From Sminthopsis crassicaudata (Eukaryota), in contig NC_133619.1 in NCBI RefSeq assembly GCF_048593235.1, positions 651,474,558-651,538,557 on the forward strand: a DNA stretch of 64,000 bases, read 5' to 3'. Made by a program: the position numbers and the translations under genes. How positions within the stretch are numbered: the stretch's first letter is position 1; every line of letters starts with the position of its first letter. Below, in pieces: positions 17,701-21,580 of this stretch. Under the pieces are notes generated by a model that ran no database searches, was not told the DNA's origin, and was given only the letters and a program-made list of their open reading frames with translations.

Positions 17701-18458
17701 ACGCCTCCGTCTGCGGCCGGTTCAGGCTCGTTCTCTCCTCCGTCCAGGCCGGGTTCCTGCCTCTGCGCCCCGTCTCCCTCCCTGGCGGTCTCTCCCCATC
17801 TGGCCCGACCTCTCCCGTCTCTGCACTAGGCCTGCGCCTCTGGGTTCCTCCAGTCCTCCACCCACGCTCTTCCCTCCCTCCGGCCGGCCCCTCCCCCTAG
17901 GCTGACCCCAAGCCTTGGCGGCCCCACAGCTGCCAGGACGAGCCTGCGGGGTCCCGGAGAGTAAAGGGGAGGGGAGCCCGCGCAGCCGGGGGGGGGGGGG
18001 GGTGCTGGAGGCCGGCTGCGGGTGCAGGACCAGGCTGGGCCACAAGGCCGCCCTGTGGCCCGGGGGTGTGACTGATGCCCGGTGACGGCTGAGGAGGTGA
18101 TGGGGCGCGAGGGTGCGCGCCGCGCCGGGCCTCCTGGGAGCCGAGGCCTCTGGGAGGGGGCTCCGCCCCCACCTCTACGTTTCTCAGGAGGAAACTGAGG
18201 CTCAAGCGGTCACGGAGGAGGCAGTGGGCAGCTCGGGCCCGCGCGGGAGGCGGGCTCCAGGGAAGGCCCCGGGCTCCGCACCGGCCCGAGCCATGCCGTT
18301 CCGGACGCGGACTTGGCCACTGGGCGGGACGGCAGACTCGTCACCTCTGGGTGACTCGGGCCGGGGACAGGGGCCGGGCGGGGCGGCTCCAGACCGCTCC
18401 CGGAGGTTCCAGAGCCCTGAATCACCTCCTGGGCGCGGGATCCCAAAGCACGGGACCG

Positions 18459-18660
18459 TGACGTCACCGAGCGGCCGGCTCGCCCCGCCCCCGGCGTGAC
18501 GCCAGCTCCGCAGCGCTCCGGGCCCTCGAGGATCCGAGCTGATTCAATCTATGGAAACTGAGCTGAGGAGGCGGTGACGTCAGCGTGTTTTTCCGCTTCC
18601 CCCCCCCCGCGCCGCCCCCTCCGGTAAACTCCGCTCCGTGACGTCAGCGCGTCCTATAAA
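18459..18660 (+). promoter_or_regulatory. PPP1R15A promoter: three CRE/ATF palindromes and a TATA box; divergent from PLEKHA4
   Basis: TGACGTCA at 18459-18466, 18575-18582 and 18639-18646; half-site at about 18497; TATAAA at 18655-18660. Confidence 0.85.
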
Positions 18661-18758
18661 AGAGGCGGCGCTCCGTACTCAGGCCTCAGCTAACCCGACC
18701 CGAGAGTGCAGACAGCGGAGATCCGAGCGTCGGCCGAGCCTTTGGGGTCCCGACCAAG

Positions 18759-18827
18759 ATGAGCCCGAACCCGAGCCCGCCCTGGACACTACCGTGCCCG
18801 TGGACGCCAGGCCTGCCCCCGGGATGA
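18759..18827 (+). CDS. PPP1R15A upstream ORF, 22 aa, [22 protein letters not shown]
   Basis: The only ATG in the leader between the TATA box (18655) and the main start. It ends Pro-Pro-Gly-stop like the known inhibitory mammalian GADD34 uORF. Confidence 0.85.
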   Translation: MSPNPSPPWTLPCPWTPGLPPG

Positions 18828-21262
18828 TGCGCAGCCCTGTCCCGGTGAGAACCGAGGGGGCGGGACGGGGAGACACGCGGAGGGGAGGATGGGGGGGGAA
18901 GGGAGGGGCCGGACGAGGAGGGGAGCCTGGGCTCTGGGGCTGGGGGACAAGGAAGGGGCTCCGGAACCCTCGGGAGAGCGGGCCGGGCCTGGGGGACGGG
19001 GCAGGTGGGGGCCCAGGGGGACCGAATGGGGAGGGCATGAATACCTCCAGGGGATAGCACAAGAAGGGGGCGGGGACTGCTGAGGGGCACAGGGAGCCCC
19101 GGAGCAGAGGCATGGGGGATTCCAGGACCTCTGGGACCTTAGGACCCAGGAGAGAGGGAAGGCTTAAGGCTGGGTCCCCTCCCAGGCTAAGTGTTTTCTG
19201 CCCTGTAAGAGCTAGTTTTATTTGAGGGTAAACAGGTCAGGTGACTTGGGCAGGGTCTCACGGCTGGCTGAGGCAGACTTGAGCTCAGAGCTTCCTGGCT
19301 CCAGGCTTGTTGTCTCCTTGGTGGCTGGAAGCCTGATGCCCTGGAGGGTGGCTGACTAAGAGTGATTGGGGCCTGGAGGAATGGGGCGAGGCCCCCGAGA
19401 AGGACCTGTTTGGGCTCTGGAGGGATTTGCCTAAGGCTGACTGGAACCTCATTCAGCCTGCTTATCCCCTCTTGCAGCACAGCCCTGCCCCCCTGGGGCG
19501 CTCCCTCAGGAACGGCCTTCTCTCTGGCCTGAAGTTCCTCCTGGCCTGGGCCTGGGCCCAGCTGGGGAGAGTGGAACTCCAGCCCAGGCCCAGCCGAGGA
19601 GCAAAGCTTGGGAACCCTGAAGCTAGAGCCGAGGCGGAGGAGGGCCCCGGGGTGCGGGCCCCCGTCGTGGGACTGCGGGCCCCCTGGCCTGGGAGCAGGC
19701 CAAAGAACAGTGAAGATGAAGGAGAAGAGGTGGGGGACCACGCCATTCCCGAGGCCCCGGGCTCACCTGAGCAGGGCCCCTCTACCTGGGCGGGTAGTGG
19801 CCCTCAGGGTCTCCGAGCCCTGGCCTGGCAGCTCAGGGAAGAGGCCGACAGATGGTTGGGGGAAGCTGAAGAAGGAGGACCAGGAAAACAGCCTCCCCCT
19901 GTGCTCTGCAGCCCCCTGCTCCGGGCCTGGGCCTATAGGCCTGGTGAGGATGAGGATGATGATGAGGAAGAGGAAGATGTGTCCAGTGGGGAAGAAGGAG
20001 ATGAGGATGAGGAAGATGGAAGACCAGGAAAACAGCCTCCCCCTGTGCTCTGCAGCCCCCTGCTCCAGGCCTGGGCCTATAGGCCTAGTGAGGATGAGGA
20101 AGAGGAAGATGTGTTCAGTGAGGAAGGGGATGAGGATGAGGAAGATGGAAGACCAGGAAAACAGCCTCCCCCTCTGCTCTGCAGCCCCCTGCTCCGGACC
20201 TGGGCCTATAGGCCTGGTGAGGATGAGGATGATGATGAGGAAGAGGAAGATGTGTCCAGTGGGGAAGAAGGAGATGAGGAAGACAGAGGACCAGGAAAAC
20301 AGCCTCCACCTATGCCCTGCAGCCCCCTGCTCCGGACCTGGGCCTCCAGACCCAATGAGGATGAGGAAGCAGAAGATGCCAAAGGAGGGCCTGTGGGCAG
20401 AGAGGACTCTGGGCCGCAGGACTTCCTCGTGTCCATCTTCGCTCCTGGCGCTGTGCGGCCCCGGCCCTGGCCCGCAGCCCGGCTCCCCCAGAGGTTGCGG
20501 AGACACCTGAGGCCCCGAGAGACCCCTGTGGAGCCAGAGCCTGCGCCCCCCCCTGGAAGGAAGGTGAGGAGAGGTCCCGGTATCAGCTCACCCTTGAGCA
20601 GGGAGCTGGGTGCCTTCTGAGCTAGCTTCATTGTCACTTTGGTTCAGTCCAGCCCCAGGCAGTCACCGAGGCCCAGGGAGGTTAAGGACTTGCCCCTGGT
20701 TCCTCACGCTGAGTGGGATTGGAACTCAGGACCTCCTGAGCTTTGGGCTATTCAGCCCTTCTTGTGAAATGAGCTCAGCAGAATAGTTTATGGGTGAGAT
20801 TCAGAGAGAGGGGCTCTGAAGCTAAGTATTTGTTTTACCTGCTACACAGGAGGTGCTTAATAAATGCTTATTCCTTCCTTCTGTGCTGCTGCAGAAGCCC
20901 ATGACCTCTCTAGGCCAGTTTCTTCCTACATAGAAGAGGGATCCTAAGTTCTCGGTTGGGAATGTGCTTTGGAACTGGAGAGGGGGATCAGGAGCCCCGC
21001 TTGTTAGTCTCACACCATCTTCTTATCTGCCTCCTTCCAGGTGCGGTTCTCCAGCACGGTCAGCCTTCACCTCCTGGTGGTGTGGGCAGGTCCCGCCCGT
21101 GCCGCCCGCAGGGGACTGTGGGAGCAGCTAGCCCGGGACCGTGGCCGCTTTGCCCGTCGCATCGCCCAGGCCGAGGAGCTGTTGGGACCTTGCCTTTCCC
21201 CCGCCGCCCGGACTCGAGCTTGGGCCCGGCTCCAGGGCCTGAGCAATTCTCCAGATCCATAG
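18824..21262 (+). CDS. PPP1R15A: GADD34, PP1 regulatory subunit 15A, about 442 aa
   Basis: Exons: 18824-18844 (MMRSPVP), 19478-20563, 21041-21262, all phase 0. Four acidic WAYRPGED repeats, a PP1-binding KVRF split by intron 2, and the eIF2alpha-binding [19 protein letters not shown] motif. Exon 2 has no in-frame ATG before 20311, so the start must lie in exon 1. Confidence 0.93.
19877..20376 (+). repeat. Four coding tandem repeats (129-144 bp) in PPP1R15A exon 2
   Basis: Units start at 19877, 20021, 20150 and 20288, each encoding PGKQPPPxxCSPLLxxWAxRPxEDE. Confidence 0.95.
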
Positions 21263-21556: not shown

Positions 21557-21580
21557 AATAAAAATTTAAAAATTTAATAA
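21557..21580 (+). terminator. PPP1R15A poly(A) signals within an AU-rich tract
   Basis: Two AATAAA with interspersed ATTTA. Confidence 0.55.

Follow-up and report, generated by a model that had tools for sequence, protein, structure and literature searches.

The leader of the PPP1R15A (GADD34) gene of the fat-tailed dunnart holds a single upstream open reading frame (uORF) whose stop codon overlaps the start codons of the main ORF, at a site homologous to a GUGA in the human leader. This layout, the splice that carries it onto the GADD34 ORF and the homology of the site are established, and the leader is probably the bypass switch known from mouse and human GADD34 with its start placed differently. 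On sequence comparison, the dunnart and human layouts are one base apart, at the third position of the uORF Gly codon, where the change is silent.

The gene lies on the + strand of the analysed window (a 64-kb stretch) in three exons. Upstream are three unstranded TGACGTCA palindromes (18459, 18575 and 18639; span 18459–18646), presumably CRE/ATF-type motifs and the sole three copies within the window, followed by a TATA box recognised from sequence (18655–18661, + strand), from which the 5′ end of exon 1 (18685–18844, + strand) was placed. The exon-1 alignment of a high-depth contig from run X6 begins at 18698, and contigs from runs X8 and X9 reach further upstream. The coding part of exon 1 comprises seven codons, MMRSPVP (18824–18844), and ends in a phase-0 donor; intron 1 (18845–19477; 633 nt, GT..AG) is seen in the run contigs. 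Exon 2 (19478–20563) encodes acidic AW(A)YRP repeats and an N-terminal amphipathic-helix-like stretch. The coding part of exon 3 (21041–21262, to the stop) encodes the PP1-binding domain (PF10488), whose KVRF, an RVxF-type motif, straddles the exon 2/3 joint, and AATAAA follows at 21557 and 21576. All these segments are on the + strand; the boundaries of intron 2 come from the sequence and the match to protein P0001 and not from reads. Joining 18824–18844, 19478–20563 and 21041–21262 gives a 442-aa product with the exact sequence of P0001, the NCBI entry named PPP1R15A of the fat-tailed dunnart. This protein carries PF10488 plus acidic repeats and clusters with other marsupial proteins, outside the placental clade, in the protein tree. 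Methionine occurs in this protein at residues 1, 2 and 286 only. A truncated isoform starting at Met286 was rejected as a conserved second product, as residue 2 is the last Met of devil P0008 and the positions of internal Mets vary between species. Near the start of exon 2 (window 19478–19500), the dunnart lacks 7 codons relative to the other seven marsupial species.

The uORF (18759–18827, + strand) has 22 codons, a start context of −3 A and +4 A, and a Leu-Pro-Pro-Gly-stop end (18813–18827) with the same peptide as the end of human uORF2. Its ATG at 18759 is the sole ATG from 18600 to 18823, and further ATGs lie upstream of the leader at 18100 and 18293. The last uORF codons read CCC CCG GGA TGA, and in the −1 frame relative to the uORF these letters open two GADD34 AUGs, at 18824 and 18827. 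The first sits in an AUGA overlap (18824–18827), whose initial A also ends the Gly codon of the uORF, a position where the human leader has G; the second, Met2, sits in a UGAUG overlap (18825–18829) that among the species found is present in dunnart and devil only. Their contexts are −3 G/+4 A at 18824 and −3 A/+4 C at 18827. A GTG in the GADD34 frame (18794–18796, + strand) lies 10 codons upstream of the start, where the possum and tammar proteins have Met, and near-cognate codons in this frame are found at 18782, 18794, 18800 and 19493–19571. The first-pass annotation had described the sole leader uORF with its PPG* end and −3 A, the AUGs in the −1 frame and both overlaps, all of which the sequence bears out; its further claims, that this frame splices in phase 0 from 18844 to 19478 onto the GADD34 ORF and that this ORF has no other early ATG, agree with the joint in three of four runs, with the identity to P0001 and with residue 286 as the next Met.

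The overlap taken singly is unremarkable, because AUGA closes the uORF in 3.9–7.5% of simulated single-uAUG leaders, and a UGAUG/UAAUG-type overlap does so in 1.3–1.7% (4 settings, 40,000 leaders each); the simulation stood in for general counts of cellular AUGA overlaps, none of which was found in the literature. It is conservation, rather than one overlap, that lifts AUGA above chance. The uORF stop also lies 17 nt before the first junction and 1,103 nt before the second (20563). As a stop codon far upstream of a junction generally marks an mRNA for NMD, mRNAs translated in the uORF alone would be expected to be NMD substrates.

Four of the 22 public runs listed were aligned to the locus, as assembled contigs and not as raw reads; their type, ‘RNA’, is the tool’s guess, with no RNA label on the record. 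The GT..AG joint 18844|19478 is present in three of the four (X6, X8 and X9, from three studies with two organism labels), and the fourth, X5, has no contig across exon 1. Acceptor 19478 alone is used in the X6, X8 and X9 contigs, although contigs lose rare forms. No alternative letter occurs at 18813–18843 in these three runs, and the check for disagreement at 18821–18830 that had been proposed with the original reading thus turned up no variant in their contigs. Their alleles at 18790/18791 change uORF Leu11 to Pro, and an allele at 18812, in X9 only, is silent in the uORF; both frames stay intact in each case. X6, X8 and X9 depart from the assembly at 18730, 18748, 18790 and 18791, and X9 also at 18812; the assembly may carry a minor allele or errors at these positions. 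In X8 and X9, contigs continue without a break from exon 1 past 18400, upstream of the TATA box, and a transcript from upstream or on the opposite strand is possible in 18400–18700.

AUGA is general among the marsupials sampled, which number 8 species including the dunnart; the seven others are represented by annotated proteins only. At the homologous site, all eight have Met followed by a residue with an A-initial codon (MM in dunnart and devil, MI in Antechinus, MK in koala, and MT in wombat, Dromiciops, tammar and possum), which forces AUGA and hence a UGA in the uORF frame. Codon 2 varies among Thr, Lys, Ile and Met and its first A is always kept, whereas the second AUG, and with it UGAUG, is local to dunnart and devil. 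Judging from the proteins, the uORF would be open in the seven other marsupials. In tammar and possum the annotations place the GADD34-frame start 16 and 10 codons earlier, respectively, at upstream in-frame AUGs that are putative starts; by eye, these extensions share 7/16 and 7/10 residues with the dunnart −1 frame, and they are compatible with, but do not prove, PPG in the uORF frame. For the devil, P0008 was used, and P0003 and P0004 were left out for their different, apparently intron-derived N-terminus. No monotreme or opossum PPP1R15A was recognised among the best 120 of 191 and the best 150 of 411 protein matches, nor among 22 candidates of a further outgroup search, and a metagenome scan for other mammal DNA returned 5 distant loci at 32–41% identity, none of which was used.

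In most placentals seen, the same site carries a different codon. The human leader, read by eye from a row of supplementary Table S1 of PMC12212004, has a uORF2 of 26 codons with an LPPG* end, a GGG Gly codon and 26 nt to the main AUG. As given in that row, it matches window 18813–18844 without gaps at 25 of 32 bases, and its first 23 bases differ from the dunnart at two positions only, 18824 (A in dunnart, G in human) and 18828 (T in dunnart, C in human), the very bases that create the two dunnart AUGs. The human site in this row thus reads GUGA, with the GUG in frame 10 codons upstream of the annotated AUG. This GUG at the uORF2 stop has a −3 G and is a candidate near-cognate start of a longer GADD34. 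The same Val-Thr recurs in N-terminally extended annotations of three bears, several vesper bats and pig, at a distance of 10 codons upstream of the Met (9 or 10 in pig). The intron also agrees in position: variants that start in it show exon 2 beginning three codons before the Met in placentals, and the site is 7 codons before the phase-0 intron in the dunnart, as devil and placental protein variants likewise imply. One placental protein, P0260 (in the cluster of P0128), begins with Met-Thr at the site and reaches the usual Met exactly 10 codons later, so AUGA occurs among placentals too, beside the exon-2 AUG; it falls within the placental clade (96/94), with the bootstrap not settled. Because such extensions can be seen only with an open frame, they form a biased sample, human being the sole unbiased case. 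A MAFFT alignment of the proteins matched Met1 of marsupials to the exon-2 Met of placentals and not to Val; this pairing was overridden by the DNA identity and intron position. In vesper bats P0025, P0052 and P0059 the extension reads Ala-Pro-Glu-Val-Thr, which implies a uORF end of Pro-Pro-Arg/Lys-stop instead of PPG*, and an in-frame AUG lies within the uORF region. The pig cluster P0120/P0274 holds two transcript-derived forms, one of them a codon longer than the other at the exon 1/2 joint with the frame kept, as if from tandem acceptors.

Elsewhere in the dunnart genome, no retrocopy keeping an older leader was found by a search with the leader sequence, for which this locus is the sole match, or by a second search, which gave three matches among 13 candidates: this gene, its CReP paralog and one broken copy. 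The CReP gene (PPP1R15B; G000:C4, about 100260900–100261300, − strand; L010/L011) contains a uORF of 8 codons and another of 54; the latter stops 47 nt before the likely main AUG, with neither an overlap nor a PPG* end. The weak third match to the PP1-binding domain (L009, G000:C1:392637724–392637858) has an internal TGA and is possibly a decayed PPP1R15 copy.

In placentals, GADD34 is described as a bypass mRNA with a single inhibitory uORF and PPG* as a modular block to reinitiation (PMC9971878); mutation of human uORF2 is reported to raise basal output about 20-fold with loss of induction (PMC8729766), and a preprint argues that placing the inhibitory element in a uORF or in an overlapping ORF matters little (10.64898/2026.08.25.746704). 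On this model, most ribosomes in unstressed dunnart cells would initiate at the uORF, terminate at PPG* and leave, and while terminating there they would sit over both main AUGs and block them. With eIF2α phosphorylated, more 43S complexes would scan beyond the uORF start and initiate at one of the two main AUGs, 18824 or 18827; no dedicated machinery would be needed for the overlap. Whether the −1 frame reads AUG, as in marsupials, or GUG, as in most placentals seen, depends on the last base of the Gly codon, which is silent for the uORF, and those with GUG start at an AUG three codons into exon 2. In marsupials, the AUG would be held as the start and the UGA as the stop of PPG*, and AUGA would be kept because each is constrained; provided that reinitiation plays no part, nothing would stop the spacer from shrinking to zero. 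We infer the mechanistic steps for marsupials from placentals. The position of the first in-frame AUG relative to the site varies, at −16 and −10 codons in tammar, −10 in possum, −11 to −13 in the annotated extensions of pig, bear and bat, +10 in human, and exactly at the site in the remaining marsupials and P0260, a spread that fits bypass and that strict stop–start coupling is not expected to tolerate. Two observations count against bypass. The uORF AUG has −3 A in the dunnart and −3 G in human (both with +4 A), which may make the dunnart uAUG less leaky than its human counterpart, and the first main AUG is just 2 nt ahead of the codon in the P site at termination, leaving a restarting ribosome with hardly any distance to move.

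That geometry is the opening for coupled termination–reinitiation, in which ribosomes ending the uORF at PPG* would restart on the overlapping AUGs and supply a real share of GADD34, with a restart at the in-frame GUG perhaps on the placental side. We regard this as unlikely. AUGA and UGAUG/UAAUG are the layouts of viral termination–reinitiation, cellular candidates are described in SLAMF1, GAD and CASQ2 and near-cognate codons are reportedly tolerated in caliciviral restart, so that GUG would fit (PMC5972666); a 9-nt piece of CASQ2 is also reported to reproduce stop-dependent restart at a nearby AUG (PMC13341110), and the position and frame of the stop are conserved in the marsupials and placentals seen. 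However, the placental frame conservation is biased, since only open frames yield visible extensions, and UGGGA, the core of TURBS motif 1, does not occur in 18680–18844. The closest look-alike, UGGGG at 18743, lies 82 nt before the stop and upstream of the uORF, is mostly paired in one predicted fold of one species (unpaired probability 0.23, 0.05, 0.00, 0.29 and 0.64), and belongs to a pattern, UGGG(A/G), at chance level, in 31% of 5,771 GC-matched 55-mers from the window. Nor does the uORF peptide contain Asp, so it has no CASQ2-type Asp-rich run. PPG* is itself reported to hinder reinitiation (PMC9971878), a review considers that an overlap of as little as 1 nt is likely to preclude ordinary reinitiation after a short uORF and gives about 82-fold less downstream product for CASQ2 coupling (PMC5972666), and an eIF2-dependent restart would be expected to drop, not rise, under stress. 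The broader proposal that (A/G)UGA at the end of the GADD34 PPG* uORF is a therian-wide restart site without TURBS, with AUG in marsupials and GUG in human and other placentals, is quite improbable; if true, GUG restart would give humans and other placentals an unreported GADD34 form 10 residues longer.

It is also improbable that the overlap was selected for a tighter switch, in which a slowly terminating ribosome would cover both starts, lowering basal GADD34 and sharpening induction beyond that of the human 26-nt spacer. By the known size of a ribosome footprint and the sequence, both AUGs fall inside the footprint of the terminating ribosome, and AUGA is intact in 8/8 marsupial species though codon 2 varies (Thr, Lys, Ile, Met); interference models also exist for single uORFs (PMC6033536). 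The same conservation is nevertheless explained by keeping the start and the PPG* stop separately, the in-frame AUGs further upstream in tammar and possum would evade occlusion, and the codon-2 changes are few, which makes the statistics for selected occlusion weak. That the working start lies elsewhere (the in-frame GUG at 18794, exon-2 CUGs, another leader or acceptor) or that the overlap is an assembly error is very improbable: in-frame near-cognates exist at 18782, 18794, 18800 and 19493–19571, X8 and X9 contigs extend upstream beyond 18400 and a second AG is present 5 nt inside exon 2, but X6, X8 and X9 match the assembly at 18813–18843 and use acceptor 19478 alone in contigs that lose rare forms, Met stands at the site in 8/8 marsupial species and the next in-frame Met of the dunnart is residue 286.

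The proposal in the first-pass annotation that this marsupial uses a different stress-response switch is therefore not upheld: AUGA is present in all 8 marsupials and is one silent base from the human GUGA, and bypass is already published for placentals (PMC9971878). Of its two suggested forms, zero-spacer bypass is also the best reading here, whereas nothing favours coupled termination–reinitiation in a leader with no UGGGA core. Its statement that PPG* is conserved across therians stands for the LPPG* common to dunnart and human but needs a qualification, since vesper bat proteins imply PP(R/K)* and hence variation at the Gly among therians. The control element and cellular stop–start overlaps were already known; the marsupial zero-spacer layout and its one-base tie to the human GUG were not found in print. 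The search, from which subscription journals were mostly absent, found no literature on the marsupial GADD34 leader, which alignment figures in primary papers may show, or on a GUG-extended GADD34. GADD34 terminates the integrated stress response, and the means by which one uORF gives stress induction is still debated among bypass, interference and stall relief (10.64898/2026.08.25.746704, PMC6033536). Marsupials offer a natural experiment on this point, a zero-spacer version one uORF-silent base away from human; a one-base change, G>A in human or A>G in dunnart, could part reinitiation from bypass with the uORF peptide unchanged. The comparison also draws attention to the in-frame GUG that overlaps the human uORF2 stop.

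Among known systems, the closest is uORF2 of mouse and human GADD34, which is the orthologous gene and site. The uORFs have 22 codons in dunnart and 26 in human, both end in LPPG*, and in both, 17 nt separate the UGA from the end of the exon-1 segment. Compared with human GADD34, the dunnart has no upstream uORF1 in its TATA-proximal leader, a −3 A at the uAUG, AUG in place of GUG and no exon-2 AUG, and its spacer from uORF stop to main start is −4/−1 nt against +26 nt. ATF4 and ATF5 uORF2 and DCP2 likewise have a uORF that reaches or overruns the main AUG, where forward-scanning reinitiation is described as excluded and bypass as needed (PMC10275272, PMC9971878, 10.64898/2026.08.25.746704); unlike these, the dunnart overlap is minimal (4 and 1 nt) and no reinitiation-permissive uORF lies upstream. 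The TURBS systems of caliciviruses and influenza B share AUGA or pentanucleotide stop–start overlaps with the dunnart (PMC10275272, PMC5972666), and AUGA and UGAUG lie well inside the stop–start distance of about 14–20 nt given in these sources. Unlike those systems, the dunnart has a short upstream ORF, no UGGGA motif 1 at 40–90 nt before the stop, no motif 2/2* stem exposing motif 1 in the predicted fold of a single species, a peptide end reported to block reinitiation, and a start that lies 65 nt downstream of the uAUG, within reach of leaky scanning. Cellular UGAUG-type overlaps are described for SLAMF1 uORF4, embryonic GAD and CASQ2, of which the SLAMF1 uORF is similar in size (29 codons); according to the same review, SLAMF1 and GAD have TURBS-like motifs and CASQ2 needs an Asp-rich run (PMC5972666), and the dunnart uORF is without all of these.
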